The position numbers and the translations under genes are program-made. The notes beneath the pieces were generated by a model, which saw nothing but the letters and a program-made list of their open reading frames with translations, ran no database searches and had not been told where the DNA came from. A DNA stretch of 64,000 nucleotides from Turneriella sp. (GTDB lineage Bacteria; Spirochaetota; Leptospiria; Turneriellales; Turneriellaceae), in contig CBDIID010000003.1 of NCBI GenBank assembly GCA_965279515.1, positions 96,001-160,000 on the forward strand, written 5' to 3'. The first letter of the stretch is position 1, and each line of letters begins with the position of its first letter. This document shows, in pieces, positions 1,813-63,299 of this stretch.

Positions 1813-3147
1813 GGTTCAATATCAGAACATCGGTAACGAAAAGTCATCACGACATCGGTAACAGTTCTGCCTCAGGCTTTGCCGTGGTTTCCTCCTGATT
1901 TGGTGTAAACAAATAATTGTTCCGATCGATGTAGCCCAATAGCAGGCCACCGAAGTAGACGTCGATGCGCATGTCGGCGATAAACCGGAGCCCGATCGGG
2001 TAGCCGTTAAAAGAATTGCCGATAAATATCCGGTGCTGCTTGTAGTTGGTGTAACCGCGGTCATTTACCATGCGTACGATGCAATCCTCAGGGTAGGCGG
2101 GTACTACGTCGCCAATATACGGAATTTCAGATGGTAGGTAGAACTCTGATGGCGTCCTCATGCCCAGGGCTTCATGCGGTCGCACATTGTTGAAGTCTTC
2201 GCGCCACTGATCAAACGAAATCTGGTGAAGCTTTAGATCACCGCGAATGCGCCCCTGCAGTTCCGTGCGGATGTCTCTGTGCATACGCTCATGGCCACCA
2301 TTCTGGGCTGGCTTTCCCGGATCAATGCGGTCCAGAGAAATTCCCAAGGACAGCCACCAGACTGACAATTTTGTCAGGCCAAAGAGTCCCCACGATGATG
2401 CGAAAGGAGTTCCGTTGTCAGAGCGAATAATTTCCGGCAGACCATAGCGTTTGAAGAGTCTGGCAAAGTGTTGTTTTACATTGGAAATATTGCCCTTTTC
2501 CAGTATCTGTATCGACAGGATGTACTTACTGTACTCATCGCGAACTGTCAGAGGTTCGCATTTCTCTGCATGTGCAGTATACCACCACCCCTTGAAATCA
2601 ACCGTCCATATGTGATTGGGATGCGTCGCCTTTTCGCGAAGCATCAGCCTCTCTCCGGTTCTGCGGCGCTTCTTTCCTCTTGGCCTTGTCAGACCAGAGC
2701 GCGCCAGAAGGCGATCGACTGTAGGAACTGAAATATCGTCTTTGCGCTCCGGGTAAAGCCTGCAGAAAACCGCATAGATCTTCTTGGCTCCCCAGCGCGG
2801 CCTGTTATTCTTTATGCGAATAATATCGCAGATTGTTTCTTCGTCAGTGCGGTTCGGATTGCCTCCTGGTTTTCGTGACAACTCCGCCAATCCAGCTAAG
2901 CCTTTTTCCAGAAACCTTGCCTTCCACTTGTACCCTGTCTTGGTGCTGATGCCAAACTCGCGGCACAGCTCTGTGAAACTCTCTACGCCCTCCAGGGCGC
3001 GAAAGACAAAAGATCTTTTCTCTTCCATTTTGGTAACCTCTTTCCACGGCATTTGAGCCCCCTGCCGAAGGCAGGCAAAAGCTCTTTGCGAAGCAAAGTG
3101 TTACCGATGTCTTGATAGAAATGTGTTACCTATGTCGTGATAGTACC
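1813..3147 (-). mobile_element. IS481-family IS, copy 1 (1335 bp)
   Basis: Ends GGTTC.../...GTACC with doubled subterminal TGTTACCGATGTC repeats; near-identical to three other copies; flanks do not form a TSD. Confidence 0.85.
1847..3052 (-). CDS. IS481-family DDE transposase
   Basis: N-terminal HTH, rve core WTVDFKG...SDNG...NGGHERMH; single ORF. Confidence 0.9.
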   Translation of the reverse strand: MPWKEVTKMEEKRSFVFRALEGVESFTELCREFGISTKTGYKWKARFLEKGLAGLAELSRKPGGNPNRTDEETICDIIRIKNNRPRWGAKKIYAVFCRLYPERKDDISVPTVDRLLARSGLTRPRGKKRRRTGERLMLREKATHPNHIWTVDFKGWWYTAHAEKCEPLTVRDEYSKYILSIQILEKGNISNVKQHFARLFKRYGLPEIIRSDNGTPFASSWGLFGLTKLSVWWLSLGISLDRIDPGKPAQNGGHERMHRDIRTELQGRIRGDLKLHQISFDQWREDFNNVRPHEALGMRTPSEFYLPSEIPYIGDVVPAYPEDCIVRMVNDRGYTNYKQHRIFIGNSFNGYPIGLRFIADMRIDVYFGGLLLGYIDRNNYLFTPNQEETTAKPEAELLPMS

Positions 3148-3162
3148 CCGCCAATGTCACAC

Positions 3163-3371
3163 AATGTGGATTTTACGCTGACGTTTTTTGACGCTTGTGT
3201 CATTAATTCAATCAGGCAAGCCGATTTGTGTCACCAAATCTGCCCGGAGCGCCTCGCGGCAAAGCACAAAACAAGCGTCCCGCTTGTGCTTTGTCCGCGA
3301 TCTTCTGGCGCGCAGGGCCGAGCACGCGAGGAGCTACGGCACCGCAGCGAGCGCAGCAGGTAAATTTTGTT
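3163..3371 (-). repeat. attC-like site R3 (chimeric A/C, core AAC mutated to AAT)
   Basis: Left arm subtype A, right arm subtype C; outer stem mismatched. Confidence 0.75.
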
Positions 3372-3425
3372 GTCTGACGTTTCTAACCCGCAATATGCCG
3401 CCGTAGCCATGGAGGGCGAAGGCGG

Positions 3426-3722
3426 TTAGTGGAAAGGCTCCTGTAGAATCCTTGCCCCATGCCAAATGATACCTATTTCAACGCGATCTTCACGCACTCT
3501 GTAAATTATGCGATAATCTTGAAAGATGACCTCTCGATAGTCTTTATCAGGAAATTCCGGGACTTTTCGGCCCATTAAGGGATGCTGTTCCAGTTGCTTA
3601 ACGCGGATGTTTATTTCCCGGGCAAGTAACTTGGCATAGGGTAATGAAAACTGTTCAATATACTGGCAAATTGCTTCGAAGCTTTGTATTGCCGGTTCTG
3701 ACCACCTTATTCGGAAAGCCAT
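3426..3722 (-). CDS. RelE/ParE-family toxin
   Basis: IRWSEPA...PLMGRKVPE...YRIIYRV...IWHGAR. Confidence 0.85.
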   Translation of the reverse strand: MAFRIRWSEPAIQSFEAICQYIEQFSLPYAKLLAREINIRVKQLEQHPLMGRKVPEFPDKDYREVIFQDYRIIYRVREDRVEIGIIWHGARILQEPFH

Positions 3723-3901
3723 TTAGCCATGCGCTTTTCCACTTCTTCGTGATCAACGCCACCATTCTTATCTAAATCACTAAAGGCAGCGTCTACCCGT
3801 GCCCTGAAGTAGAGCTTTTCCATAATATCTGATACCGTAGCAGTATCTGGCAATGAGTCTATCATTTTGACGACCTCATCTTTTACTGTAGCCTGTGCCA
3901 T
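3707..3901 (-). CDS. Antitoxin partner of ParE-like toxin
   Basis: Small acidic ORF overlapping toxin start; KDEVVKMIDSLPD...HEEVEKRMAKW. Confidence 0.75.
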   Translation of the reverse strand: MAQATVKDEVVKMIDSLPDTATVSDIMEKLYFRARVDAAFSDLDKNGGVDHEEVEKRMAKWLSE

Positions 3902-4039
3902 AAGACAGGATAGCCAAGCCATTTAGTGCAGCAAGGATTTTCCAGAAATCTCGCTCTAAGCTAAAGTAAGCTCAATCACCAGGGCTCGACCGCGGCATGG
4001 ATGCCGCGTGCATGGTATTGCGGGTTAGAAATGTCAGAC

Positions 4040-4254
4040 AACATGGAATTTACACGAGGTCGATGGTGCGCCGCACAATAATAGTGGGCTTATTTGGAAA
4101 GCCGCATATTAAGCACCATCGATCTGCCGTAGACCGCTCGTTGCGCCTGACCAAACAAACGTCCCGTTTGTCAGGCGTCAACGATCTTTGCGGTCGGAGG
4201 CCGAGCACGCGAGGAGCTACGGCACCGCAGCGAGCGCAGCAGGTAAATTTTGTT
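4040..4254 (-). repeat. attC-like site R4 (subtype D)
   Basis: AAC...GTT folded repeat. Confidence 0.85.
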
Positions 4255-4332
4255 TTCTGACGTAGCTGCCCTTGTGAACCCGGCCATGGACGGCCGGGTG
4301 AAAATTTGGAATACTGGCCCGCGGCAAAATGA

Positions 4333-5280
4333 GTGAGGTCTCATAATTGGCTTGCTGCCCAGCTGGGAAAGCAAAATAAGTTCTTTGTGAAATGCCTCGG
4401 TAAGCTGAGTTTCTTCTCCGTGCTGCTCTTAGTGGCGATACTGCCAATTGGTGCACAACTGACGGAGAAGGATTTCGATGAGCTTCTTGTGGCCGTAGAG
4501 GCGAGTAATTTTAAGAAACTCAAAACAATATTAAATAAAGAAAAGGCGAACGCGAAAGACAAGCACGGTAAACCTCTTTTACACCGAGTGAAAGATATTC
4601 GAATTGCTAGACTTTTTCTCGAAAACGGTAGCAATGTCAATGCAACGGATGGTTATTTCGAGACAACAGCATTGCATAAAGGACCAAGTATTCAGTTTGC
4701 CAAACTCTTTATTGAATTCGGGGCAGACGTAAATGCGAGAACTAGGTATAAGCAAACGCCTTTATATGGGGTTGATACAATTGAACTGGCGAAGTTACTC
4801 GTCGAAAACGGCGCAGACATAAATGCAAGAAATGATTCAGGATATACCCCCCTGCATGTGACGAATAGTATTGCAGTCGCTGCTTTTCTTATCGATAAAG
4901 GCGCAGATGTTAATGCCAGAACTGATGACGGATCGACGCCGATACATCGAGTTCAGGACGTTCGAAAGATTAATCTGCTGATTGAAAAGGGAGCCGATAT
5001 TAACGCTCAGAATAATGCAGGTGAGACCGTTTTGCACCTAGCCGCAAAAGAGGGTCAAACTATTCATGTTGATAAGATGGAAGCAGGTCATCATGCTCCA
5101 TCGCGAACGGACTGGACAGAAAACAAGAAAATTATTAGATTGCTTACTACCCACGGAATAAATGCCTTTTTGAAAAATGCAAAGGGAGAAACAGCTTTTG
5201 AAATTGCTTGGGATAAACAAGTTAAAGCCCTTCTAAAGGCTGCGGAAGAAAAATATCGGGCTCAAATAAAGAGCAAGTAA
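4333..5280 (+). CDS. Secreted ankyrin-repeat protein (inverted cassette)
   Basis: Several GADVNAR...TPLH repeats; signal-peptide-like N-terminus; start uncertain. Confidence 0.9.
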   Translation: MRSHNWLAAQLGKQNKFFVKCLGKLSFFSVLLLVAILPIGAQLTEKDFDELLVAVEASNFKKLKTILNKEKANAKDKHGKPLLHRVKDIRIARLFLENGSNVNATDGYFETTALHKGPSIQFAKLFIEFGADVNARTRYKQTPLYGVDTIELAKLLVENGADINARNDSGYTPLHVTNSIAVAAFLIDKGADVNARTDDGSTPIHRVQDVRKINLLIEKGADINAQNNAGETVLHLAAKEGQTIHVDKMEAGHHAPSRTDWTENKKIIRLLTTHGINAFLKNAKGETAFEIAWDKQVKALLKAAEEKYRAQIKSK

Positions 5281-5385
5281 ATATGCTTTTGAGGAACATA
5301 AACTGTTTGAATTCTTGATTGCCGTGTTTTGACAACCAGTGCCCGCATGGAGGCGGGCAAATAACATTGGGCAGCTATGTCAGAG

Positions 5386-5601
5386 AACGTGGAATTTACC
5401 TGAGGTCGATAGTGCGTCGCACAACAAATGCAGTCTTCATTCGAAAGCCGCGGCTTGATGCACTATCGATCTGCCGTAGGTCGCCTCGTTGCGCCCGACC
5501 AAACAAACGTCCCGTTTGTCGGGCGTCAACGAGTCTTCGCGACCGGAGGCCGAGGACGCGAGCCAACGAAGTGCGCACGCTCGCAGCGGGTAATTCTTGT
5601 T
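5386..5601 (-). repeat. attC-like site R5 (subtype D), IS1182 inserted at its GTT
   Basis: AAC...GTT; continuation gttaggcgcag resumes at 7339. Confidence 0.85.
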
Positions 5602-7338
5602 GAATCTGTAGAATAAGATTGCTTTGGCCTGAAAATTGCCGTAGTTACGTAGGTTATAATGCAACATATCGGGAGAAACCCATGCCGCGATTTAGATCAG
5701 AAAACAGAAGCCAGAATATGCTTGTGCCGGTCGATCTTTCGGATCAGATAATGAAGGGGACACTGGAAGCGACGATCAACGAAGCAATCAATCGGATGGA
5801 CATGACGCCGTTTACCCGCAGAATCAAGAACGACCTCACCGGTGCGCCGGCATATGATCCACGCTCGTTGCTCAAGGTGATTCTCTTTGCCTATTCGCGG
5901 GGGATTTTGTCTTCGCGCCGTATTGCCGATGCCTGCGAGAAGCACATTGTGTTCATGGCCTTGAGCGGTTATAGCAAGCCTAATTTTACCACAATTGCTG
6001 ATTTTATCTCTTCGATGGGGGCAGAGGTTAAGCAGGTTTTCATCCACATTCTGCGAGTCTGTGCGAAAATGGATTTAATCGGCGCGGAGCGCTTTGCGAT
6101 TGATGGGCACAAGCTTTCCTCGAGCGCCGCTAAGGAACATAGCGGTCGCTTTGCCGATTTCAAAAAGCGTATCGAAAAATACTCCGACCTGATCGGGGCT
6201 CTGGTCAGGCAGCATGCAGAAACAGATTTGAAAGAGAGAAAGGCAGCGTTGGCACAAAAGCGTAATCGGCTGACAGCGAAGAAAGAACGACTGGAGGGGT
6301 TTTTAGAATCCAACCAGGCTAAACGGGCAACGCGGAAATGCGGCAAAGAGCCGACGAGCAACGTGACGGATAACGAATCGGCCAAGATAATTTCATCGCA
6401 CGGGGTGATTCAGGGCTATAACGGTGTTGCGGCGACCGATGAGAAATGCCAGATTGTGATCGCGGCCGAAGCGCACGGTACTTCTTACGAGGGCAACCTG
6501 CTGATGCCAATGCTTGGTATAGCCGAAGAGAACATGGCGGATGTCGAAATAGATAAAACAATATCAGAGATACAGGTACTTGCGGACGCAAATTACTTCA
6601 ACGAAGCAAACCTGAAGGCTATGTCAGAGAAAGGGATCGATGCGTATATACCCGATCCGATGTTTCGCAAGCGCGATCCGCGGTTTGCGAATGCAGACGA
6701 CCACAAGGGTAAGACGCGCAGGAATGTCTATGACACGAAGAAGTCACAGGGCTTGCGCGGGTTCGGACAGGAGGATTTTATCCATGACAAGAACGGTGAT
6801 TTTTACATCTGTAAATCGAGTCACCGTCTGAACCGGTGGGCCAATCACGCGAGCAGTGGTGGCCGGGTTTACGGTATTGGAAAAATTGCGCACTGTCGGT
6901 CCTGTCCTTTGCGTAACGAGTGCATGCCCGGTGGTAATGCTCGGTCCAAGAAAATGATTACAGTCGCGAGCACAGATGCAGATAGCAGGCGCATGCCGTA
7001 TTCGACCGCGATGAAGGCTAAAATTGATTCACCAGAGGGCAAGGCGATCTATGCGAGGCGGTTGCAGATTGTGGAACCGGTGTTTGCGAACACCAGGGCG
7101 CATAAAGGGATGAATAAATTTACACTCCGCGGGAAGCGAAAAGTGAATATTCAGTGGCTGCTCTACATGTCGGTTCATAATCTTTCTAAGATTGCCAGGG
7201 CAATTCGTGCGAATCCGCAGTTACAGATAGCGTGATACGGCGTGGGAAATCAGTACTGAAGGAAAAGGCGATTTAGCGGGCAGAACAAAAGACGAACAGG
7301 CCTATTGCGCTACGAGCGGGGACTTTTTCTACAGATTC
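5602..7338 (+). mobile_element. IS1182-family IS
   Basis: Perfect 12-bp TIR GAATCTGTAGAA/TTCTACAGATTC; GTT duplicated at 5599-5601 and 7339-7341. Confidence 0.85.
5682..7235 (+). CDS. IS1182-family transposase
   Basis: GAPAYDPRSLLKVILFAY, AIDGHKL, LADANY, YARRLQIVEPVFAN motifs; RBS ggag before 5682. Confidence 0.9.
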   Translation: MPRFRSENRSQNMLVPVDLSDQIMKGTLEATINEAINRMDMTPFTRRIKNDLTGAPAYDPRSLLKVILFAYSRGILSSRRIADACEKHIVFMALSGYSKPNFTTIADFISSMGAEVKQVFIHILRVCAKMDLIGAERFAIDGHKLSSSAAKEHSGRFADFKKRIEKYSDLIGALVRQHAETDLKERKAALAQKRNRLTAKKERLEGFLESNQAKRATRKCGKEPTSNVTDNESAKIISSHGVIQGYNGVAATDEKCQIVIAAEAHGTSYEGNLLMPMLGIAEENMADVEIDKTISEIQVLADANYFNEANLKAMSEKGIDAYIPDPMFRKRDPRFANADDHKGKTRRNVYDTKKSQGLRGFGQEDFIHDKNGDFYICKSSHRLNRWANHASSGGRVYGIGKIAHCRSCPLRNECMPGGNARSKKMITVASTDADSRRMPYSTAMKAKIDSPEGKAIYARRLQIVEPVFANTRAHKGMNKFTLRGKRKVNIQWLLYMSVHNLSKIARAIRANPQLQIA

Positions 7339-7369
7339 GTTAGGCGCAGTGATTTGAGCTACGTATCAA

Positions 7370-7564
7370 TCATTGTTTCGCCAAGGAGGGCGAAACAATG
7401 CGAACACCACGATCTATGATTAGTTCTTTGAATAGAGCAGAATTGTGCACTTCTTTTGATACCTTTTCAGAATATTCAGCAAGTGAAAGATGCTTATTAT
7501 TCTCGTATTCTCTGTTCCGAATACTTCTGACCCATTCGACACAATCAAATTTCTTCTTCGTCAT
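7370..7564 (-). CDS. Small putative antitoxin downstream of PIN gene
   Basis: MTKKKFDCVEW ORF overlapping PIN gene end. Confidence 0.6.
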   Translation of the reverse strand: MTKKKFDCVEWVRSIRNREYENNKHLSLAEYSEKVSKEVHNSALFKELIIDRGVRIVSPSLAKQ

Positions 7565-8015
7565 AAACCACCTCTTTCGGACTGCGAATTTCTAAACTCC
7601 TATACCCTTCACGGATATTTATTCCATTAAAGCCCATAATTCGGCTCACGTTCACAATATGCTTAAAATTCCAACTTAGCAATAAATCAGCTCCAAAATG
7701 AGCCGCCGTTGCTATGTGCAAGGCATCAACCTGGCACCATTGTGGTACAACCTTCTCCGTAATATACATCTGTGCCAACGTTCGCACTTCTGGCGTGGTG
7801 GTAATTTCAACCTGATATTCCTCGGGTATCCCTTTCAATACATTCTTAATCTCGGTCGGTGCACCTTCAAGCTCTTTCAGAGTCGTATCTGAAATCAAAG
7901 CAATATATCTACCACTCTTAATTCGATCGATAAGCATCAGTGATTCGACCGAGAATTCCTCGTCAAAACAACCGCCAATAACCGACGTATCGAGATAAAC
8001 CTTCAGAACGCGCAT
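7545..8015 (-). CDS. PIN-domain (VapC-like) toxin
   Basis: VYLDTSV...DALHIATA...LLSWNFKHIVN. Confidence 0.85.
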   Translation of the reverse strand: MRVLKVYLDTSVIGGCFDEEFSVESLMLIDRIKSGRYIALISDTTLKELEGAPTEIKNVLKGIPEEYQVEITTTPEVRTLAQMYITEKVVPQWCQVDALHIATAAHFGADLLLSWNFKHIVNVSRIMGFNGINIREGYRSLEIRSPKEVVYDEEEI

Positions 8016-8138
8016 TTTCAGCTAAAATATGCTCTAAAGATATATAAGGTCAACGCATAAATGTCGTGGCCAAAATCGACTGATGCCCGCCACGGATGGC
8101 GGGGGCGCCTTGGAAAACCCTCTCAAATCATTGCGCCT

Positions 8139-8345
8139 AACGTGGAATTTACCTGAGGTTGAGTGACGCTTTGTTCAAGTTTGTGTTCTGTAAAGCCATT
8201 TTGCGTCACTCAATCTGCCCGGAGCGCCTTGCGGCAAAGCACAAAACAAGCGTCCCGCTTGTGCTTTGTCCGCGATCTTCTGGCGCGTAGGGCCGAGCAC
8301 GCGAGGAGCCACGGCACCGCAGCGGCGCAGCAGGTAAATTTTGTT
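8139..8345 (-). repeat. attC-like site R6 (subtype B)
   Basis: AAC...GTT; gagtgacgc/gcgtcactc hairpin. Confidence 0.85.
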
Positions 8346-8437
8346 GTACGCCGTTGCCGTTCGGATAGCCTCGATCAAGGAGGATCGAGGCGTATTTTTG
8401 TTTACGACCGACGATTAATATTTACGGCTCCTTACAG

Positions 8438-9121
8438 ATGTTCCAGAAATTTGGCCAGCTTTTGTTTCTGAGCGTCTCGATGTGTTTCTTCATAAACCCA
8501 AGCCTGATTGGAGCAAGTGATTACCCTGTCCCGGAAGGCTATTACCAAGGCCCCTGTGGAGAGTTATATACGGACAAATACATTGAGAATCTCATTAATT
8601 ATGATAGTTCAAAATCTACCCTTGTAAAGCATTTGGTACCATTACGCCATCTTAACCTACGATTAGAATTCTGGCCACAAAGTTATGGCTTTTATCTTGT
8701 TAAGACTTCACCTTCAAAGTATGAACGCTTCATGTTTTGGAAATGCAATTGTCACGGTCAGGATATGGGATTTAGCTTCAGCAAACTGAACCCCGCGGAT
8801 GACGCAAGTGTCGGCCTGTTCCTCTTAAGTGAACACTCGAGCGAATGGTCATGGAGCAAGAATTTGACGCCTGAAAGACGGTTCATTCGAAAAGAACGCC
8901 TTGAACGGAATCAGGTCTATGCCAAGGAGTTTTCTTTTGGTTTGAAGGACGGACGGGATGTTGTGCGAGCCGAACAGGCTGCTCAAGAAATAATTATTGA
9001 AAAGGAAAAAGCCTGGTCCTTTAATTTTAAGCTAATACCAATAGATTTGCGAGAAGGATTTTTTTGCCTTAAGCCCACTATTGAAGGCATTAAATCTGAT
9101 TTGTTTGAGCTTAAGAAGTGA
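8438..9121 (+). CDS. Hypothetical exported protein (inverted cassette)
   Basis: 227-aa ORF filling cassette, hydrophobic N-terminus. Confidence 0.7.
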   Translation: MFQKFGQLLFLSVSMCFFINPSLIGASDYPVPEGYYQGPCGELYTDKYIENLINYDSSKSTLVKHLVPLRHLNLRLEFWPQSYGFYLVKTSPSKYERFMFWKCNCHGQDMGFSFSKLNPADDASVGLFLLSEHSSEWSWSKNLTPERRFIRKERLERNQVYAKEFSFGLKDGRDVVRAEQAAQEIIIEKEKAWSFNFKLIPIDLREGFFCLKPTIEGIKSDLFELKK

Positions 9122-9182
9122 ACAGCGCCCGCACGATGCGGGCGAATGACCGTGAGTCATTAACCGTACAATTATTTCAGAC

Positions 9183-9395
9183 AACGTGGAAAATACCCGA
9201 CGTTGATGGTGCGTCATGCAATAAATACAGGCTTATTTGGAAAGCCGCATACGGAGCACCATCAATGTGCCCGAAGCGCCTCTCTGAGGAGCGCGAAACA
9301 AACCTCTGGGTTTGCGCGACGAAGAGATCTGTGGCGCGGAGGGCCGAGCACACGACCCAGCGCAGCGGTCGTGCGCGCAGCGGATATTTTTTGTT
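9183..9395 (-). repeat. attC-like site R7 (divergent)
   Basis: AAC...GTT folded repeat. Confidence 0.8.
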
Positions 9396-9444
9396 AGCTG
9401 CAGTTGCCGGTTCGGTAGCCGAGACCAAGGATGGTCGAGGCGAA

Positions 9445-9777
9445 TTACTTGCACCCAAGTTTATTGCAATATGTAGTTCGGATTTCTTGAGACTTAGATT
9501 CGCTTAACGCACCGACTCTGTATCGAATCAGCGACGTATGCAATGTATATATTTTGTCGCATCGGGCGAAGCTAGTCTTTGGCAATGTGCCACTTTTCAA
9601 GTCTGCCTGTTCAATTCGAATTGAATCGGGATGTCCCTGGTTTGAGGTAACAGAGAGGCAAATAAAATCGCCATTTCGGTCAGCAGGCGTCAGTACTACG
9701 ACCGGTCTCTGTTTGGAGCGAGCCAGGTCTGAGAAAGGAAAATTGACGGTTATCAGCTCAAACGGGCTTAAAGTCAT
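9445..9777 (-). CDS. PemK/MazF-family toxin
   Basis: FPFSDLARSKQRPVVVL...SFARCDKIYTL. Confidence 0.85.
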   Translation of the reverse strand: MTLSPFELITVNFPFSDLARSKQRPVVVLTPADRNGDFICLSVTSNQGHPDSIRIEQADLKSGTLPKTSFARCDKIYTLHTSLIRYRVGALSESKSQEIRTTYCNKLGCK

Positions 9778-9958
9778 TCCAGGCATCGTCCTCGGCATTA
9801 TCCCACGTTTTCGAAAGAGATTCTGACTGTGCTAACATTAGATTGGCGTCATCGATGCCGTGCTTTTGCTCTAAATACCCAATAAAATCCATGACTTCTT
9901 GCACAATTGGCTGCGGGAGCCTCTGTAGTTCTTGATATGCTAATTCCGCTAGACTCAT
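9758..9958 (-). CDS. DUF2281-like antitoxin
   Basis: LQRLPQPIVQEVMDFIGYL...WDNAEDDAWND; overlaps toxin. Confidence 0.75.
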   Translation of the reverse strand: MSLAELAYQELQRLPQPIVQEVMDFIGYLEQKHGIDDANLMLAQSESLSKTWDNAEDDAWNDFKPV

Positions 9959-10120
9959 TAGATACCTTGCGCCCTTACTTGCTAAAATATATTGAGGTGT
10001 AAACTATTATTGGCGTTGGGGACTTATGTCAGCCATTTCTTGCTCTTTTCTGAGCAAATAGCGCTAAACCCCGGCATGGATGCCGGGAGCGGACATTTTG
10101 TCTCACCGGCAATTGCAGCT

Positions 10121-10329
10121 AACGTGGATTTTACGCTGACGTTTTTTGACGCTCGTGTCATTTATTCAATTTGTAAAGCCGATTTGCGTCAAAAAATGTG
10201 GTCGTAGCGGCTCGCGGCGACGCGCGCAAACACACCTCCCGGTGTGCGCGTCGTCCGCGATCTTTGCCGCCCAGACCCGAGCACGCGAGGAGCTACGGCA
10301 CCGCAGCGGCGCAGCGCGTAAAATTTGTT
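10121..10329 (-). repeat. attC-like site R8 (A)
   Basis: AAC...GTT folded repeat. Confidence 0.85.
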
Positions 10330-10460
10330 CTCTGACGTAGTTGCGGCTGCAAGCCCGGGCAGGGATGGCCGGGCGGCCACTTTATACAAAAATTCTTGGA
10401 CATAGAATAAACAAGCTTTACACACGAAGCCTGCTGAGCATATCGAATCTTATCTGTTCA

Positions 10461-10913: not shown

Positions 10914-10981
10914 GTCTGTCCCAATTTTGTTAATGCGCCGACATGGATGTCGGCGGAGTACATGCCGCAACTATGTCAGAG

Positions 10982-11189: not shown

Positions 11190-11201
11190 GTCTGAAGTGC
11201 G

Positions 11202-11864: not shown

Positions 11865-11884
11865 AACTATAGCGCATTTCAGAC

Positions 11885-53951: not shown

Positions 53952-54158
53952 AACGTGGAATTTACCTGAGGTTGAGTGACGCTTCGTTCAACTTTGTATT
54001 CTGTAAAGCCATTTTGCGTCACTCAATCTGCCCGGAGCGCCTCGCGGCAAAGCACAAAACAAGCGTCCCGCTTGTGCTTTGTCCGCGATCTTTGGCGCGT
54101 AGGGCCGAGCACCCGAGGAGCTACGGCACCGCAGGGAGCGCAGCAGGTAAATTTTGTT
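53952..54158 (-). repeat. attC-like site R55 (B)
   Basis: AAC...GTT folded repeat. Confidence 0.85.
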
Positions 54159-54169
54159 GTGCGACGGAG

Positions 54170-54859: not shown

Positions 54860-54873
54860 TGACTCTGTCGCAC

Positions 54874-55076
54874 AACGTTGGAATTTCGCGAGGTGATTGA
54901 CGCGTCAATAAAACTGGTCTTATATGAAGCAGCTTCGCGTCAATCATCTGCCCGGAGCGCTTCGCGAGCCTGCCAAAAACACACCTCCCGGTGTGGCAGG
55001 CGCAGCGATCTTTAGCGCGTAGGGCCGAGCACGCGACCCAACGGAGTGGTCGCGGGCGCAGCGCGAAATTCTTGTT
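54874..55076 (-). repeat. attC-like site R56 (BrnTA-linked variant)
   Basis: Same variant as R33. Confidence 0.85.
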
Positions 55077-55193
55077 CTCTGCAGTGTTTAGCTACGTTAG
55101 CCGCGGGCGACATGGAGGTCGCTCGCGGACGGCTTTGCCAGAATTAAGAGCTTTTTCTGGGCAAATTTATACACTGTATGTACATTGTACATA

Positions 55194-55484
55194 GTGAAGC
55201 TGGCTTTTGTATGGGATGAAGCCAAGAATCTCGAGAATATTAGGAAGCATGGAGTCTCTTTCAAGGAAGCCAGCACGATCTTTGGCCGTATACCGTATGA
55301 GATTTACGATGATCCAGATCATTCAGAAAAGGAGCATCGGTATCTGGCAATCGGCTTCAGCGATAAGGCTCGCGCCTTACTGGTAAGCCATACTGAAAAT
55401 GCGACTGGCACAGAGATTAGAATTATATCTGCTCGCAAAATGACGAAACAAGAACGGGCAGACGCGTTTGGAGGCAAACTATGA
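55194..55484 (+). CDS. brnT: BrnT toxin, copy 2
   Basis: Close paralog of 32309..32599. Confidence 0.88.
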   Translation: MKLAFVWDEAKNLENIRKHGVSFKEASTIFGRIPYEIYDDPDHSEKEHRYLAIGFSDKARALLVSHTENATGTEIRIISARKMTKQERADAFGGKL

Positions 55485-55711
55485 GAAAGGAATATGATCT
55501 AACCAAACTGACGAAGGCTTCGCCTAAATACTTGAAACACATAAAGAAGCCGGTGACGATTCGGCTTGAGCCACAGATAATTGCATATTTTAAGGGCCTG
55601 GCAGAAACTACCGGATTGCCTTACCAATCGTTACTGAATTTTGTTCTACGCGACTATGCTAACGAGAACAGGAAACCCAATGCGAATTGGGGAAAAGTAG
55701 CTTCGCGCTAA
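55481..55711 (+). CDS. brnA: BrnA antitoxin, copy 2
   Basis: One aa different from 32596..32826. Confidence 0.85.
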   Translation: MRKEYDLTKLTKASPKYLKHIKKPVTIRLEPQIIAYFKGLAETTGLPYQSLLNFVLRDYANENRKPNANWGKVASR

Positions 55712-55763
55712 GGCGGCCGGCAAGGATGCCGGACGCTCTTCTCTATTGCTAAACATTGCAGAG

Positions 55764-55972
55764 AACGTGGATTTTACGCTGACGTTTTTTGACGCTTGTG
55801 TCATTTAATCAAATTGTAAAGCCGATTTGCGTCAAAAAATGTGGTCGTAGCGGCTCGCGGCGACGCGCGAAAATACACCTCCCGGTGTGCGCGTCGTCCG
55901 CGATCTTTGCCGCGTAGGGCCGAGCACGCGAGGAGCTACGGCACCGCAGCGGCGCAGCGCGTAAAATTTGTT
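55764..55972 (-). repeat. attC-like site R57 (A)
   Basis: AAC...GTT folded repeat. Confidence 0.85.
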
Positions 55973-56069
55973 CTCTGACGTAGTTGCGCGTGACCACCCG
56001 ACCAAGGATGGGCGGGTGGGCATTCGAATAAGAGTCTTGCCTGGAATAATGATTAGTTGACCTTGTATC

Positions 56070-56696
56070 TTGCGATCAATTATGCTTTTTATGGCTGGCT
56101 CTTCCCAAATGTTGAATTTTCGACTTGGACTCATCAGTACCATTCCTATACTGATATTTGTTCAATGTAACGTATTGAGTGTCTCTTATAAACGACGCAG
56201 TGATTTAAGAGAGCCTGAAATTTGCCCGCAAAGTAAGCGAACAGCGCCAGTTGGCTATAATTTATTCTCGACTAATCGGTTTCAAATACAAACTGATCTC
56301 AAAGTTAGCTGGGAAGCCCATCGGTATTGGGCTCTTGCTTCAATCATACCAACCCTTGGTTTCTTGCGAACTGTCGCTATGAACTCTATCGAATTAAAGG
56401 TTACTAACAACAGGCCGTTACCAATAATATTTTCTCAATGTGATGTACTTTTTTTTGATACGAATAATATTTCTACAAAAATAGGAGTTAGTGTTCCAAA
56501 CTGTGAGCAATTACCTAAGTACACAGTTTTACCACAAAAGACCGTTCAAATCGATGTCGAACAAGAAGAAATGACTGTCGCTAGTTTAAAGACTATCAAG
56601 ATAAATTTCAGGTCTGCGAGCCAGACCGATTTGTTGTCACAGGACATTAACATCGAAGAAGATTGGAGCCTCTGCTTTTCGGCAATAAACCGTTAG
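56070..56696 (+). CDS. Putative lipoprotein (inverted cassette)
   Basis: ILIFVQ-C lipobox-like; start probably downstream. Confidence 0.6.
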   Translation: MRSIMLFMAGSSQMLNFRLGLISTIPILIFVQCNVLSVSYKRRSDLREPEICPQSKRTAPVGYNLFSTNRFQIQTDLKVSWEAHRYWALASIIPTLGFLRTVAMNSIELKVTNNRPLPIIFSQCDVLFFDTNNISTKIGVSVPNCEQLPKYTVLPQKTVQIDVEQEEMTVASLKTIKINFRSASQTDLLSQDINIEEDWSLCFSAINR

Positions 56697-56759
56697 AATT
56701 GCAAGAAACTCTGCGCCGCCACGGATGGCGGCGAAGTAAAGCGCGCAACTATGTCAGAG

Positions 56760-56974
56760 AACGTGGAATTTACACGAGGTCGATGGTGCGTCGCACAATG
56801 AAGACTGGCTTATTTGGAAAGCCGCGTATCAAGCACCATCGATCTGCCGTAGACCGCTCGTTGCGCCTGACCAAACAAACGTCCCGTTTGTCAGGCGTCA
56901 ACGATCTTTGCGGTCGGAGGCCGAGCACGCGAGGAGCTACGGCACCGCAGCGAGCGCAGCGTGTAAATTTTGTT
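56760..56974 (-). repeat. attC-like site R58 (D)
   Basis: AAC...GTT folded repeat. Confidence 0.85.
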
Positions 56975-57025
56975 GTACGCAGTTGCCGATCGAATACAAC
57001 CTGTCTTTGATGAGATTTTGGTAAA

Positions 57026-57469
57026 TTATGTAATTTCACCGACCATGCCGTCCCAATACAAGGTTTCACTCTCAAGCTTAGAAAAGCGTCTAAGCAATCG
57101 CCCTAGATTGTTTATGCCAGCCGGTTCGCATGGAATCGAAAAATCAGTAAGAGCCCGAATTGGATGATCCAAATTGTTGGCAAATCTAAGGTTAATCGCC
57201 GCATGGCCGCTTGAATCTATTAAATAAACCCGGAATCTAAAGAAGAAGGCAAATCTAGCTTTTGGGTCTTCGGAGCCTAATTCCCAAAGAAAATTGTCCT
57301 TATTATTCTTAGGAAATTCTTCTAAGGCATTGGCGCATAAAATAAGTGATTCTGCATTATCATAAATTTCTAGTTCACCAGCTTGGTGACCATTCGAAGC
57401 CTCAATAACTAAATTTATGTGATAAGGCTCTTCGTACGGAATTCTCACTAATTTCAATGAATTCTTCAT
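57026..57469 (-). CDS. Hypothetical protein
   Basis: 147-aa ORF filling cassette. Confidence 0.7.
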   Translation of the reverse strand: MKNSLKLVRIPYEEPYHINLVIEASNGHQAGELEIYDNAESLILCANALEEFPKNNKDNFLWELGSEDPKARFAFFFRFRVYLIDSSGHAAINLRFANNLDHPIRALTDFSIPCEPAGINNLGRLLRRFSKLESETLYWDGMVGEIT

Positions 57470-57497
57470 GTGTAATTATCTCTCGGCAATTGCGTAC

Positions 57498-57705
57498 AAC
57501 GCGGAATTTACCTGACGTTTGGTGACACCTGTGTCATTAATTTAGATGGAAAAGCCGCCTTGTGTCACCAAATGTGCCCGGAGCGCCTCGCGGCAAAGCA
57601 CAAAACAAGCGTCCCGCTTGTGCTTTGTCCGCGATCTTCTGGCGCGCAGGGCCGAGCACGCGAGGAGCCACGGCACCGCAGCGAGCGCAGCAGGTAAATT
57701 TTGTT
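57498..57705 (-). repeat. attC-like site R59 (C)
   Basis: AAC...GTT folded repeat. Confidence 0.85.
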
Positions 57706-57738
57706 GTGCGTCGTAGTTAAACTGGCAAAAATGTTTGT

Positions 57739-59253
57739 TTACTCCTGTGCTCCAAGTAAGTATCCAGAGGTAAGACCTTTGGACTTTAGCCAATCTTTAA
57801 CGGCGGTTTTATTGCCTGCAATAACGCTATCAATTTCGCTATCTTTCGGAAGGGACCAAAACTGAATACCTATTAGCCTGGAGAAAATATTGCGGATTTT
57901 GTCAAAATCTGTATCCGTCAATTCTCTATAGAATGGCCGCGCTCGCTCATCACTATCAGTAATTTCAAGTTTTGCACAGACTGCATCGCGAAATAATTCC
58001 GACCATGCCATGATGCTCTTTGAAGCGAAAATGCGTTCTAACTTGATTTGTTCCGTTTTTGTAGGGGAAGAATCTTTGTTCCAGTTAAAGAGAGCCAAAT
58101 CAAACAAAATATTCAATAACTGTATATTGTTTGAAAACTCAAGTTCACGTTTGTAACTATCGCTGGCCATATTGTCCGCAACCGGCTCAGTGTTCAAGAA
58201 GCACGAAAAAATAGATTTTGAGAGCATATCGACGGTAATTGGCTCCTCCATTGAGCCACGATTGCTGCTAGAAATAAGAGATTTCATCTTATTCGTTGGG
58301 TCATTCAGAACTGAATCGTACAGGTAGCTGCGAAACCTTTTGTTCCTTTCTGCACGCGTCATTGTTGTATCTTGAATCCTTTCTAAATATTCCAAGAAGC
58401 CAATTTCTGATTTGACTTGGCCGTCTTCGATGTTCTTGTATGCTTCGAAATCTTTGCCAAACTGTTGACCTAATTTTTGAATCAGGACTGGTGAAAAAAA
58501 TCTGGTTTGAGCAAACCTGTCATGGGCTGCAATGTTTGTTTGGTTTAGAATTCGTATTTCTGGGTTAACGTAGATTTTGCATTCTAGAATTTTCCGGCCA
58601 TTCCACAACAGAGCGGCGGCCTTATGCTGCCCATCAAACAGTAGTATTTTATCGCCTTTCACCCTGCCGATTGATGGCTGCAAAACCGGATAAATCTGAA
58701 AATGTCGGTATAATTCAAAAACTTTGTCAAAAATTAGATATCGAGGCTGCAAGCCAATAGATTGATCATCTTCATCATCGCTGTTGAGAATATCGATTGG
58801 CAAATTACCGTAAAAATATTTCCATTTCGTCAGAGGACACACATGCAGGTCAAAAGCATTATTAAACGAATGATTTTCTGCACTGATGATCTTGCCGCTT
58901 TCCTTAAGCGATACAGATTGGCCAAAATCTGTAATTAGCTTCTTTGTCTTAAAGAATTCAAGCAGGTGCTTTAATGTTTGTTTTTCACCGTTCTCGAAAA
59001 ATTCTTCGATTTGCAACTTAATTCGGAAGTCTTCAAGAGGCAGCATACCCTTTGCTTTGTTGTGAAATTCGCACATTGGTGCAATATTGTCCAGTTCGCT
59101 TTGACCACCAAGGGCATGGGCTCTAATGTGATCAAAATGGAGTTTGTCACTTTCGGGAATGTCATGATTATTGGCGAAGCATTTGCGACCAAATCTGGTA
59201 AGAATGGTCTTCTTCTCTTCTTCGTTTAGTTGTCTTTTTAAAGTTATAGCCAT
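57739..59253 (-). CDS. HNH endonuclease fused to ParB/DGQHR-like domain
   Basis: HFDHIRAHALGG...NIAPMCEFHNKAKG; LQPR; LLFDGQHKAAA. Confidence 0.8.
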   Translation of the reverse strand: MAITLKRQLNEEEKKTILTRFGRKCFANNHDIPESDKLHFDHIRAHALGGQSELDNIAPMCEFHNKAKGMLPLEDFRIKLQIEEFFENGEKQTLKHLLEFFKTKKLITDFGQSVSLKESGKIISAENHSFNNAFDLHVCPLTKWKYFYGNLPIDILNSDDEDDQSIGLQPRYLIFDKVFELYRHFQIYPVLQPSIGRVKGDKILLFDGQHKAAALLWNGRKILECKIYVNPEIRILNQTNIAAHDRFAQTRFFSPVLIQKLGQQFGKDFEAYKNIEDGQVKSEIGFLEYLERIQDTTMTRAERNKRFRSYLYDSVLNDPTNKMKSLISSSNRGSMEEPITVDMLSKSIFSCFLNTEPVADNMASDSYKRELEFSNNIQLLNILFDLALFNWNKDSSPTKTEQIKLERIFASKSIMAWSELFRDAVCAKLEITDSDERARPFYRELTDTDFDKIRNIFSRLIGIQFWSLPKDSEIDSVIAGNKTAVKDWLKSKGLTSGYLLGAQE

Positions 59254-59324
59254 TTAGAATTTCCTATTGGGACTTGTTCTTATTCTCTCGTGAAAAGATA
59301 TATTATTTTTTAACTATGACGCAC

Positions 59325-59535
59325 AACGTGGAAAATACCCGAATTGCGCCCCCGCGGGTGTAAAGTGTAAATAATCACGGCTTTATGTGACTTTCGCGGG
59401 AGCGCATTTGCCCGAAGCGCCTCGCGGCAAAGCACAGAACAAGCGTCCCGCTTGTGCTTTGTCCGCGATCTTTGGCGCGCAGGGCCGAGCACGCGAGCCA
59501 ACGAAGTGCTCGCGGCGCAGCGGGTATTTTTTGTT
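59325..59535 (-). repeat. attC-like site R60 (E/B mosaic)
   Basis: AAC...GTT folded repeat. Confidence 0.85.
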
Positions 59536-59724
59536 AGCCGCCGTTACCGGATTCGCGCGGCTGGCGAGCAACCCGAAGGTCAGCGAGATACTGTAGTTCG
59601 ATATTATTAGTAACCGAGGAGTTGTCGCCAGGATCAAAGGCGTAAGCAGCGAAATCTGGTTGTACTCTCTGATAACAAATCCTCTTTTTCTCCCCTTCGG
59701 GGCGCGAAGGAGGTAATGGTGGCT
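59536..59724. other. Gene-less cassette type A, copy 5
   Basis: Copy of 15118-15305. Confidence 0.75.
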
Positions 59725-59934
59725 AACGTTGGATTTTACGCTGACGTTTTTTGACGCTTGTGTCATTTATTCAATCTGTAAAGCCGATTTGCGTCAAAAA
59801 ATGTGGTCGTAGCGGCTCGCGGCGACGCGCGAAAACACACCTCCCGGTGTGCGCGTCGTCCGCGATCTTTGCCGCGGAGACCCGAGCACGCGAGGAGCTA
59901 CGGCACCGCAGCGGCGCAGCGCGTAAAATTTGTT
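59725..59934 (-). repeat. attC-like site R61 (A; same as R10)
   Basis: AAC...GTT folded repeat. Confidence 0.85.
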
Positions 59935-60029
59935 GGGCGCCGTTGTCGCTACGTAAAGCTCGGCCAAGGAGGGCCGAGCGTGAGCCTTTTCCCCTGATTA
60001 TTCGAGAAAATGCTTTTTAGCCTGTTCAC

Positions 60030-60569
60030 ATGAAACAATTCGGAATTATGTCGCATTGGGGATGGACCATATTTCTTGTCATACTACTTGGGTGTAAAAC
60101 CGCCCCGCCGGATTCGGTTGAAACGCTTAATGATGTTCAATTAGAAGAGGACGAAGACCCCGCTGATTCAACGCGACTTATAATCAAGAAAATTGGACAT
60201 ACAGAGGCCAATGGCTTCAGACAATTAAGTGTACGAATCGAAATTTCTAGCTACGGCGAAGTTATGCAGTCTTTTCAAGAGCTCTTCATTACTTTTGGCT
60301 CGATTGAAAAGCTAGTCTTCGGTGAAAAGATTGCCTATTTCATTTCATGCGACAGGCAAGGGTCAACTTGGGCTGCCAAGAAAGCCATTATTGTATGGGA
60401 TAAAGAAGGCATTTGGAGTATTTTGCCGCTGCATTTTGATCGCGCCACGCTTCATAAAAATGAGAAGCGTTTCCTGATAGATGAGAAAATTGGCGTGATC
60501 GGCGAAAATCCTACTGGGAACCAGCTCTATGAGTTCAATGATGGCTTGCTAACATTGTATAAACCCTGA
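60030..60569 (+). CDS. Putative lipoprotein, duplicate of 12190..12729
   Basis: Identical translation. Confidence 0.75.
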   Translation: MKQFGIMSHWGWTIFLVILLGCKTAPPDSVETLNDVQLEEDEDPADSTRLIIKKIGHTEANGFRQLSVRIEISSYGEVMQSFQELFITFGSIEKLVFGEKIAYFISCDRQGSTWAAKKAIIVWDKEGIWSILPLHFDRATLHKNEKRFLIDEKIGVIGENPTGNQLYEFNDGLLTLYKP

Positions 60570-60639
60570 CTGACGTCATCCTGTTCAGCTTGCAAACAGG
60601 CGCGCAAGGATGCGCGCGAAATCGAAATTGATTTATGCG

Positions 60640-61974
60640 GGTACAATATCAGAACATCGGTAACGAAAAGTCATCACGACATCGGTAACAGTTCTGCCTC
60701 AGGCTTTGCCGTGGTTTCCTCCTGATTTGGTGTAAACAAATAATTGTTCCGATCGATGTAGCCCAATAGCAGGCTACCGAAGTAGACGTCGATGCGCATG
60801 TCGGCGATAAACCGGAGCCCGATCGGGTAGCCGTTAAAAGAATTGCCGATAAATATCCGGTGCTGCTTGTAGTTGGTGTAACCGCGGTCATTTACGATGC
60901 GTACGATGCAATCCTCAGGGTAGGCGGGTAGTACGTCGCCAGTATACGGAATTTCAGATGGTAGGTAGAACTCTGATGGCGTCCTCATGCCCAGGGCTTC
61001 ATGCGGTCGCACATTGTTGAAGTCTTCGCGCCACTGATCAAACGAAATCTGGTGAAGCTTTAGATCACCGCGAATGCGCCCCTGCAGTTCCGTGCGGATG
61101 TCTCTGTGCATACGCTCATGTCCGCCATTCTGCGCTGGCTTTCCCGGATCAATGCGGTCCAGAGAAATTCCCAAGGACAGCCACCAGACTGACAATTTTG
61201 TCAGGCCAAAGAGGCCCCACGATGATGCGAAAGGAGTTCCGTTGTCAGAGCGAATAATTTCCGGCAGACCATAGCGTTTGAAGAGTCTGGCAAAGTGTTG
61301 TTTTACATTGGAAATATTGCCCTTTTCCAGTATCTGTATCGACAGGATGTACTTACTGTACTCATCGCGAACTGTCAGAGGTTCGCATTTCTCTGCATGT
61401 GCAGTATACCACCACCCCTTGAAATCAACCGTCCATATGTGATTGGGATGCGTCGCCTTTTCGCGAAGCATCAGCCTCTCTCCGGTTCTGCGGCGCTTCT
61501 TTCCTCTTGGCCTTGTCAGACCAGAGCGCGCCAGAAGGCGATCGACTGTAGGCACTGAAATATCGCCTTTGCGCTCGGGGTAAAGCCTGCAGAAGACCGC
61601 ATAGATCTTCTTGGCTCCCCAGCGAGGCCTGTTATTCTTTATGCGAATAATGTCGCAGATTGTTTCTTCGTCAGTGCGGTTCGGATTGCCTCCTGGTTTT
61701 CGTGACAACTCCGCCAATCCAGCTAAGCCTTTTTCCAGAAACCTTGCCTTCCACTTGTACCCTGTCTTGGTGCTGATACCAAACTCGCGGCACAGCTCTG
61801 TGAAACTCTCTACGCCCTCCAGGGCGCGAAAGACAAAAGATCTTTTCTCTTCCATTTTGGTAACCTCTTTCCACGGCATTTGAGCCCCCTGCCGAAGGCA
61901 GGCAAAAGCCCGTTGCGAAGCAAAGTGTTACCGATGTCTTGATAGAAATGTGTTACCTATGTCGTGATAGTACC
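60640..61974 (-). mobile_element. IS481-family IS, copy 4
   Basis: 4-bp TSD TGCG (60636-60639, 61975-61978) confirmed against empty copy near 12796. Confidence 0.92.
60674..61879 (-). CDS. IS481-family transposase
   Basis: Same protein as copy 2. Confidence 0.9.
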   Translation of the reverse strand: MPWKEVTKMEEKRSFVFRALEGVESFTELCREFGISTKTGYKWKARFLEKGLAGLAELSRKPGGNPNRTDEETICDIIRIKNNRPRWGAKKIYAVFCRLYPERKGDISVPTVDRLLARSGLTRPRGKKRRRTGERLMLREKATHPNHIWTVDFKGWWYTAHAEKCEPLTVRDEYSKYILSIQILEKGNISNVKQHFARLFKRYGLPEIIRSDNGTPFASSWGLFGLTKLSVWWLSLGISLDRIDPGKPAQNGGHERMHRDIRTELQGRIRGDLKLHQISFDQWREDFNNVRPHEALGMRTPSEFYLPSEIPYTGDVLPAYPEDCIVRIVNDRGYTNYKQHRIFIGNSFNGYPIGLRFIADMRIDVYFGSLLLGYIDRNNYLFTPNQEETTAKPEAELLPMS

Positions 61975-61990
61975 TGCGACAATGGCGCCC

Positions 61991-62198
61991 AACGTGGAAT
62001 TTACCTGACGTTTGGTGACACTTGTGTCATTAATTTAATAAGGAAAGCCAAATTGTGTCACCAAATGTGCCCGGAGCGCCTCGCGGCAAAGCACAAAACA
62101 AGCGTCCCGCTTGTGCTTTGTCCGCGATCTTCTGGCGCGTAGGGCCGAGCACGCGAGGAGCCACGGCACCGCAGCGAGCGCAGCAGGTAAATTTTGTT
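61991..62198 (-). repeat. attC-like site R62 (C)
   Basis: AAC...GTT folded repeat. Confidence 0.85.
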
Positions 62199-62221
62199 GT
62201 ACGTCGTGTTTGGGGATCAAT

Positions 62222-63226
62222 TTAGTAAGGTGTTCTCTTTATCCAGTTAAGGTATTCTGGGCTTCGTTGACTTCCGTAGTTTGTAAGGGCTTCATTAAGC
62301 CAATCTTTGGGGTTTGGCTTTGCTTGAATATTAAACTTCGGATCATCCATACATTCCGCGAAGTAATATACTATTTTACCCTTATGACCGAAAATGGTGA
62401 CGATAGTTCTGGTTAGTTCGCCCCGTTCATTTGGGTGATGTTTTTTGTAGCTTTCAAGGTAAACAAAATACTCTAAGAGTTTATCGTATTGTATCGGCGC
62501 AGCTTTACCGACGAAGATTTTTTGGGGTTTCAAGAAAGATAGGTTTCGCCTCGCTTTACTTTCAAAATATTTATCAATCGCAGCTATGTTGTCAGACATT
62601 AGGTGTTTCTTTATATTTTCAAAGCTATGAATATCATTCGAGTAGTGGTATATTACCTGTTGGGATTGACTTGTGTCAAAACTAAAAAAATTACTGTCCG
62701 GAAAAACGGGCTTCAGTATGTAGGTTTGAGTTTTCTTATTGGGATCGAAGAGTTGAGTTAAAATTTTCTCAGATTCTTGTTCTGTTACTGTAGGACCATC
62801 ATCCTTCGGAAAAAAGATGCGCACTAAACTGTATATTTTTGGGGCTTCGTACAAAATGTAGGCAACATATGTTATTTTGAACTGAGGATCATCTTTGCTC
62901 TTTAAGACGGCCGAAAGTCGCGTTTTGCCAATTAAAGTACTAATCTTAATTTCACTCACATGCGGCTCGGCCTTAGATAACCATTCTTTTCTCCGCTGTT
63001 CTAAATCATCGATGTGAAAGCCGCCATATTCTACCTCCACTAATGGCATTGAAAATTTAGCTTTATCGGTCATGCCTGCGCTGAGCTCAATGGCCTTTAG
63101 GTCATTTTCTGTTGCGAAATAACTGGCTACTCTCCTGTTCGGAAAATTCGGGACAAATTTATATTCAGCAATATCTTCAGACCACAAGGGAATCGAAGCT
63201 AAAAAAACAAGGACTATTGCTTTCAT
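62222..63226 (-). CDS. Hypothetical exported protein
   Basis: 334 aa, signal peptide MKAIVLVFLASIPLWS. Confidence 0.7.
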   Translation of the reverse strand: MKAIVLVFLASIPLWSEDIAEYKFVPNFPNRRVASYFATENDLKAIELSAGMTDKAKFSMPLVEVEYGGFHIDDLEQRRKEWLSKAEPHVSEIKISTLIGKTRLSAVLKSKDDPQFKITYVAYILYEAPKIYSLVRIFFPKDDGPTVTEQESEKILTQLFDPNKKTQTYILKPVFPDSNFFSFDTSQSQQVIYHYSNDIHSFENIKKHLMSDNIAAIDKYFESKARRNLSFLKPQKIFVGKAAPIQYDKLLEYFVYLESYKKHHPNERGELTRTIVTIFGHKGKIVYYFAECMDDPKFNIQAKPNPKDWLNEALTNYGSQRSPEYLNWIKRTPY

Positions 63227-63282
63227 ATTCGGTTAATAGATTTTAGAAAGCCTATGGTGAAAAGTAAAATAGTCAAGCCACG

Positions 63283-63299
63283 TATGTCGTGATAGTACC
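63283..63299 (-). mobile_element. IS481 terminal remnant (17 bp)
   Basis: TATGTCGTGATAGTACC equals the IS end, at the same offset from attC as full copies. Confidence 0.7.

Follow-up and report, generated by a model that had tools for sequence, protein, structure and literature searches.

An IS481-like element of spirochaetes inserts at a set distance from attC-like sites and probably selects them by DNA sequence

The window analysed here, a 64,000-nucleotide (nt) stretch of a Turneriella sp. assembly (GCA_965279515.1, contig CBDIID010000003.1, positions 96,001 to 160,000), contains four copies of a 1,335-bp insertion sequence (IS) with an IS481-like DDE transposase, each lying just outside an attC-like recombination site of a gene cassette array. 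Our analysis reveals that this attC-side insertion is real, non-random and clade-wide; position, orientation, target duplication, the habit of the whole clade and a motif bias at the targets are all observed directly. We consider it probable that this element of a spirochaete clade finds its target through the primary sequence of double-stranded DNA, at a distance from the insertion point. The transposase itself would presumably read the motif, perhaps through its C-terminal beta-barrel.

The element carries a single 401-aa open reading frame (ORF), preceded by 95 and followed by 34 non-coding nt, and each of its ends bears two copies of a GACAT.GGTAAC motif. The four window copies are 98.7–100% identical to copy 1, and in all of them the transposase is encoded on the minus strand with its 5' end, the left inverted repeat (IRL), toward a repeat at the right. 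The termini are GGTAC...GTACC, as had been predicted, with GGTTC at the plus-strand left end of copy 1 and at that of one copy outside the window. The whole genome has seven full copies, an older truncated one and two scars of the left end, all confined to two arrays of ~208-bp repeats, and 9/10 IRL junctions lie 15 or 16 nt from an attC-like AAC core in the same orientation. By our own arithmetic (~130–150 sites × 2 positions over 4.9 Mb × 2 strands), the chance of this offset is ~3e-5 per insertion.

Copy 3 (47089..48423, minus strand; transposase gene 47123–48328) lies inside a 188-bp gene-less cassette and is flanked by a GGAG duplication (47085–88 and 48424–27). Copy 4 (60640..61974, minus strand; gene 60674–61879) is flanked by TGCG (60636–39 and 61975–78), and its empty site is found in the same cassette at 12796..12814 (minus strand), with an identical attC of its own at 11885. 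The flanks of copy 2 (40711..42045, minus strand; gene 40745–41950), GGCA and TAAT, are unmatched, each standing in the 4 + 12 nt register; those of copy 1 (1813..3147, minus strand; gene 1847–3052) are unmatched as well. A 17-bp IRL remnant lies at 63283..63299 (minus strand). The corresponding attC-like sites, all on the minus strand, span 3163..3371 (copy 1, at the R' end), 42062..42270 (copy 2), 48440..48646 (copy 3), 61991..62198 (copy 4) and 63316..63524 (remnant). Between the element end and AAC lie 16 nt (4 + 12) for copies 2, 3 and 4 and the remnant, corresponding to the 4 + 15 nt including AAC of the original prediction, and 15 nt for copy 1, whose right side had been noted as 1 bp shorter and whose core is mutated to AAT. 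Gaps of 15–16 nt are also found for the three full copies outside the window (duplications TAAG, CGCA and the 3-bp GAG) and the second scar. The coordinates, duplications and spacings first described are all present in the sequence, and the missing ends of the first two copies, when reconstructed from the cassette's terminal inverted repeat or an empty homologue, fit the same register.

The duplications intact in five copies (GGAG, TGCG, TAAG, CGCA and GAG) are 3–4 bp long and unrelated in sequence. A comparison of GGAG with GAG, which occur in the same cassette type, shows that the attC-proximal cut is fixed, 12 nt past GTT, and that the other cut shifts by one base. An alternative assignment, with termini trimmed by one base and a 5-bp duplication, suits 3/5 intact copies but not those with TGCG or CGCA, and was rejected. 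An IS5-family element served as an untargeted control: four of its five near-identical copies lie outside the arrays, and the sole in-array copy (window 24628–25868, duplication CTAG) lies mid-cassette at CTAG.

The array on the minus strand spans the window (1..64000), with 63 complete ~208-bp attC-like repeats and no integrase nearby; the two arrays of the genome (contig C3, 86–170 kb and 3,734–3,805 kb) hold 127 complete repeats, with 149 hidden Markov model matches genome-wide. The labels R', L' and RYYYAAC are those that we take to apply to these sites. Between exact cassette duplicates, the left repeat is 100% identical from AAC onward, compared with about 65% on the right; because the left attC is common to duplicated cassettes, the cassettes run on the minus strand, and it is the R' core (G|TT) that adjoins the element. 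The AAC/GTT cores follow the definition given in PMC3607928, and cassette exchange at G|TT together with the cassette's own attC is as in integrons and in clusters of attC sites lacking integron-integrases (CALIN). The element occupies the first bases of the next cassette, after GTT+12, just past the 11-bp arm and at the end of a terminal inverted repeat: the two ends of each cassette are complementary over ~15 nt, with pairing of at least 0.87 at all but one of the first 13 positions and 0.48 at position 16. The eighth position of this repeat is unpaired in every cassette scored. Folding is strong in 22/22 sampled attCs (z –4.6 to –10.5 vs base shuffles), and the minimum-energy folds pair AAC with GTT in 99/127 attCs and pair the L stem without a clear bulge, the never-paired position lying 8 nt outside the core. 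As predicted, attC is left intact, the insertion lying outside the R' arm. The further expectation that the gene is spared mostly stands, the first ATG lying >16 nt from GTT, beyond the insertion point, in 42/51 forward cassettes (of the remaining cassettes, 18 are reversed and 40 have no long ORF at the cut-off used).

No IntI with its specific insertion was found in the genome, and we therefore call the sites attC-like CALIN rather than a proven integron. No recombinase of the genome exceeds the IntI cut-off (best TIGR02249 scores 149 and 161 vs 265), and the two best IntI-like recombinases show a gap of 30–40 positions at the IntI-specific insertion, a region that is just as short in the recombinases adjoining arrays of relatives. 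Among 20 family genomes (this one and 19 others), none gave an IntI match at E<=1e-30, in a weak search whose controls also gave no match. Recombinases without the insertion were judged not to be IntI by Cury et al. (PMC4889954). IntI-like tyrosine recombinases of this kind lie beside or near arrays in relatives (L137, L138, L140, L141 and L151), that of L137 being divergent from a cassette, and the one in this genome (L003) lies at C3:2926093–2927214; they are candidates for the cassette recombinase of an unrecognised integron-like class. Literature searches, which covered few subscription papers, found nothing on such arrays outside Treponema.

Relatives were collected from 20 family genomes, 80 genome loci, 5 individual genomes and 80 metagenome loci; removal of 24 repeat fetches and of rows with <150 aligned residues left 188 rows for FastTree. 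The element falls within a clade of 64 loci (FastTree support 0.984), on which a quick IQ-TREE of 53 rows concurs, and the named members are spirochaetes, save one flankless contig binned elsewhere. A C[GA]TT[AG] motif lies 15–18 nt from IRL in 34/37 readable clade flanks outside this genome, compared with 2/98 outside the clade, by a measure that starts from the end motif and overshoots by about one base in Leptospira elements. Of the remaining three clade flanks, two have the motif at the right inverted repeat (IRR) and one has none; a further locus without an IRL flank also has an IRR site. After reduction, 32 distinct clade sites remain, five of them from one metagenome-assembled genome (MAG). 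One long-read MAG has 5/5 copies at the attC offset, and an independent moss metagenome adds two junctions in the 4 + 12 + AAC register, with runs X1–X4, the possible source of this genome, left out of the junction count. The same offset is held by transposases only 49–69% identical to the query, and the attC bodies differ greatly between genomes. By comparison, a sister element (G024) has IRR facing attC, with AAC 22–24 nt from IRR at 10 array sites. The original prediction of an IS481-like DDE element with a fixed offset, a single orientation and an attC-type target is borne out by the 9/10 junctions of the genome and the 34/37 clade flanks, most mapped copies lying neither away from attC nor at variable offsets.

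More distant branches show other target habits. In a branch 35–47% identical (L006–L008, L010, L012, L013 and L021), IRR lies about 17–18 bp from dif-like sites, paralleling IS1202 with a different geometry; the dif of this genome is at C3:304403, beside the GC-skew maximum, and the 38-kb contig C1 has a pair of identical dif-like sites separated by about 23.5 kb. Many copies of the G021 branch (L112–L134) lie 20–22 bp from a single GACATA half-site that has no partner arm; this half-site is similar to a dif arm and also to the motif at the ends of the element itself. Outside the clade, 41/94 IRR flanks adjoin 5–8-mer tandem repeats, compared with 1/67 at 320 nt as a control; the relatives concerned (L050–L105 and L187–L244) come from Verrucomicrobiota, Planctomycetota, Acidobacteriota and Myxococcota. 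At L237, a 366-aa ORF that by eye looks like an IS110-type transposase lies upstream of the half attC targeted by the element.

Targeting had been proposed to be sequence-independent, a claim that our comparison of the sites does not support. GACGTT occurs in 9/9 targeted attCs vs 57/127 overall (hypergeometric p 5e-4; family-wise p about 0.004 over all k-mers by permutation). A ~25-bit matrix built from the 32 sites of other genomes has 87/97 of its best matches in this genome inside attC and scores targeted above untargeted attCs (p=0.0035). By comparison, fold energy and core pairing are similar in targeted and untargeted attCs. Furthermore, three off-array copies of the G024 sister have intact 4-bp duplications, no attC body, and a motif-like sequence at the array offset (p 0.0018, 0.035 and 0.22; combined 0.001); these sites match mainly in the spacer and the start of L', and the AAC core is absent in two of the three. 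A primary-sequence consensus, named at the outset as the observation that would speak against the original prediction, largely accounts for the sites. It is the neighbouring attC that shows the bias (9/9), the cassette's own attC having the motif in only 2/5, which indicates that insertion occurred in the array and that the cassettes have not been reshuffled since. Targeting of pseudo-ends in the manner of IS30 or IS911 was also considered; by inspection, the junction register shows no end-like motif.

The transposase matches Pfam rve, rve_3, HTH_32 and LZ_Tnp_IS481 above cut-off, and its DDE triad (D152, D212 and E255) is invariant. Its best family is IS481 (NF033577, E 1e-61, 209 bits vs a curated cut-off of 224), compared with only 32.6 bits for the ISNCY model, and the nearest RefSeq plasmid proteins (39–41%) are annotated as IS481 family and share the internal end motif. 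Its GGTAC...GTACC ends differ from the TGT...ACA termini by which IS481 is recognised, and the 3–4-bp duplication is within the IS481 range, not of the majority length. Within the clade, by approximate end calls, IRL starts with GG in 32/51 and TG in 16/51, and IRR ends with CC in 46/52. The predicted model (predicted local distance difference test score 73) contains two helix-turn-helix (HTH) domains, the DDE core and a beta-barrel, after which the protein stops, with no extra domain; its nearest folds are TnsB and IstA. Four of the 12 clade-specific residues lie in the barrel, among them R332, found in 100% of clade rows vs 8% outside. These residues point to the barrel as the reader, although only suggestively. 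A complex prediction of transposase residues 140–390 with the IntI-like recombinase scored 0.00; it gives no verdict and was used in neither direction.

The original prediction had left targeting to structure or to a protein. Recruitment of the transposase by a tyrosine recombinase at the L'–R' site, with insertion just outside its footprint, is in our judgement rather unlikely. It would suit a cut about 3 bp beyond an 11-bp arm resembling Xer arms, the preference for best-consensus arms (a bound recombinase could also yield the motif bias), the branch beside dif-like sites and the IntI-like recombinases adjoining arrays in relatives, and such recruitment has been proposed for ISAjo2 and ISAba32 at XerC arms (PMC10132070; bioRxiv 10.1101/2022.12.17.520857). 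However, the off-array sister sites match largely outside the R' core, the G021 branch makes do with half-sites, and no canonical IntI was detected here or in the 19 family genomes at the threshold given above, at which the controls also went unmatched. Recognition of an extruded attC hairpin or cruciform, with insertion at the stem base, is less probable still. The strong folding, the paired cores, the position of the cut where the cassette-end inverted repeat fades and the variable attC bodies are consistent with it, but fold is equal in targeted and untargeted sites whereas sequence is not. In addition, the biased attC is that of the neighbour, which is unable to form the long outer stem (complementarity 5.5/12 vs 10.3/12), the off-array sister insertions have no attC body, and only a half-site is present at L185 and L237, though the other arm there may have been lost later.

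The absence of any targeting, with random insertion filtered by selection or a single ancestral insertion multiplied through gene conversion or the duplication of cassettes, is very improbable. Such a history would suit the dispensability of the array DNA and the recombined flanks of some copies, but five different duplications in different cassettes all keep to a common offset within 1 bp, the IS5 control does not, and diverged transposases share it. We thus favour read-out of primary sequence, against which several observations nevertheless weigh. The GACGTT test was found post hoc and then corrected by permutation. One of the three off-array sister sites is not significant, and the sister is only 51% identical, faces attC with its other end and has a different offset. 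ACGTC is absent in 9/34 clade sites, including that of the 90%-identical relative L165, and the ruler tracks GTT rather than ACGTC, spacings of 13 or 14 giving the same offset. The loci are non-independent, five coming from one MAG and several from Leptospira, and two share a flank. IRR faces attC at three main-clade loci (L102, L178 and L190), L183 has no site, and the tenth IRL junction of this genome, that of the 94%-identical truncated copy (C3:89513–90770), abuts the inside of a broken attC. Both arrays lie on one replichore, so orientation to attC and orientation to the fork are inseparable in this genome. In the main clade, attC sequence and hairpin always coincide, and fold or a bound recombinase may contribute there; the clade-specific residues of the barrel may be mere ancestry.

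Under sequence read-out, the transposase complex would recognise the L'-spacer-R' end of an attC-type site, with a consensus of about AAACGTC-N13-15-CGTTRYGCNNAT on the cassette strand. The right end of the element would be joined 12 nt past GTT and the left end 3–4 nt further, resulting in a 3–4-bp duplication of unrelated sequence with IRL usually toward attC. Because insertion falls just beyond the recombinase-binding arm, where the ~15-nt terminal inverted repeat ends, attC survives and usually the cassette gene as well. As expected for the family, transposition would follow a copy-out-paste-in circle route; no circle junction was found among the contigs of four runs, which are unable to show absence. 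Since all copies are direct repeats, deletions between them would remove cassette blocks and leave hybrids with unmatched flanks. Such deletions are consistent with the scars and with the non-matching flanks of copies 1 and 2, of which copy 1 is probably a hybrid of two copies. As for the idea that the element rides excised cassettes, the anatomy would permit it, but such movement is not seen: none of the cassettes bearing the IS is duplicated, it is the neighbour's attC that carries the motif bias, and the genome has no IntI above cut-off. Overall, the original prediction was right on targeting and probably wrong on sequence independence and riding.

Related transposases with different targets, offsets and orientations form a natural series in which domain swaps can test directly how helper-less DDE elements locate recombination sites. 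Tentatively, the GG/CC-ended IS481 lineage may have, within its one transposase, a re-aimable module that reads DNA 1–3 helical turns from the insertion point without RNA or helper proteins and that was directed successively to cassette attC ends, dif sites and short tandem repeats. The candidate module is the C-terminal beta-barrel, with N330-R332-G333 in the attC clade. If this is true, the element would be the first DDE IS specialised on attC, and would mark a class of spirochaete cassette arrays whose tyrosine recombinase has no IntI insertion. A 401-aa enzyme inserting in one orientation outside its recognition site is also a possible compact targeting tool. For integron biology, the element adds a DDE parasite of attC that would erode arrays through direct-repeat deletions, and it flags large cassette arrays without canonical IntI in Leptospirales and other spirochaetes.

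A second attC-associated element is present in the window, an IS1182-family DDE element (5602–7338; transposase 5619–7235, plus strand) above the NCBIfam cut-off, sitting exactly at the other (R'') attC end and duplicating the GTT/AAC core. In a 251-genome phylum search, 16/16 IS1182 loci (L245–L260) are flanked on both sides by the core triplet, four of them after a one-base end shift and some sharing a genome or flanks; most flanks are attC-like by look, unscored, and further loci are L030, L032 and L071. Insertion of an IS1182-type element at the R'' end of attC was not found in our literature search. The ~188-bp gene-less cassette, with its own attC type, occurs about a dozen times across both arrays, about ten times empty and twice with the element; window occurrences are 15118–15305, 17253–17434, 19377–19564, 46913–47088 and 59536–59724. 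Cassette proteins with domain matches are encoded at 4333–5280, 30268–31188, 39170–40135 and 57739–59253, the domains comprising ankyrin repeats, an NADase-type glycan-binding domain, a weak beta-propeller and an HNH domain.

Our comparison with known systems begins with other parasites of attC. Group IIC-attC introns also parasitise attC, and differ in being retroelements with another chemistry and position. The IS1111-attC group (ISKpn4 and ISPst6) is likewise specialised on cassette attC sites; its members are described as using a seekRNA-guided DEDD recombinase, with a long non-coding region, and inserting at one attC end (PMC11187229), whereas the present element has a DDE enzyme, only 95 + 34 non-coding nt, and inserts outside attC with a duplication. 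No DDE IS targeting attC was found in literature searches of the scope given above, although a curated note of one could exist in ISfinder. IS30 and IS911, likewise with DDE transposases, insert at a defined spacing from a sequence bound by the transposase (PMC9333248), but their target is their own inverted repeat, joined across a few bases, and inspection finds no such end-like motif here.

The closest precedent, overlooked by the original prediction, is the IS1202 elements ISAba32 and ISAjo2, which show oriented insertion with IRL beside a tyrosine-recombinase site, by a mechanism that the reports call speculation (PMC10132070; bioRxiv 10.1101/2022.12.17.520857). Both systems have a single DDE transposase with two HTH motifs, an RNase H fold and a beta-barrel, two binding sites per end, and a duplication of unrelated sequence. 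By comparison, the IS1202 subgroup targets Xer dif/pdif sites, abuts the arm, duplicates 5–6 bp, ends in TGT...ACA, and encodes 441–457 aa with a helical C-terminal domain, whereas the present element targets attC R', inserts 3 bp plus the duplication beyond the arm, duplicates 3–4 bp, has GG...CC ends and encodes 401 aa. It works like the ISAba32 subgroup but, by length, ends, duplication and target, is not a member of it. IS1202 falls inside IS481 in one phylogeny, and IS481 target duplications are given as 2–15 bp, mostly 6 (PMC10045372). The element resembles IS481 (NF033577) in domain order and sequence, and differs in its score (209 vs 224 bits), its GG/CC termini, its duplication of 3–4 rather than 6 bp and its choice of target at a distance. 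It is best filed as IS481-like with atypical ends, working like the IS1202 elements of Xer sites but on attC.

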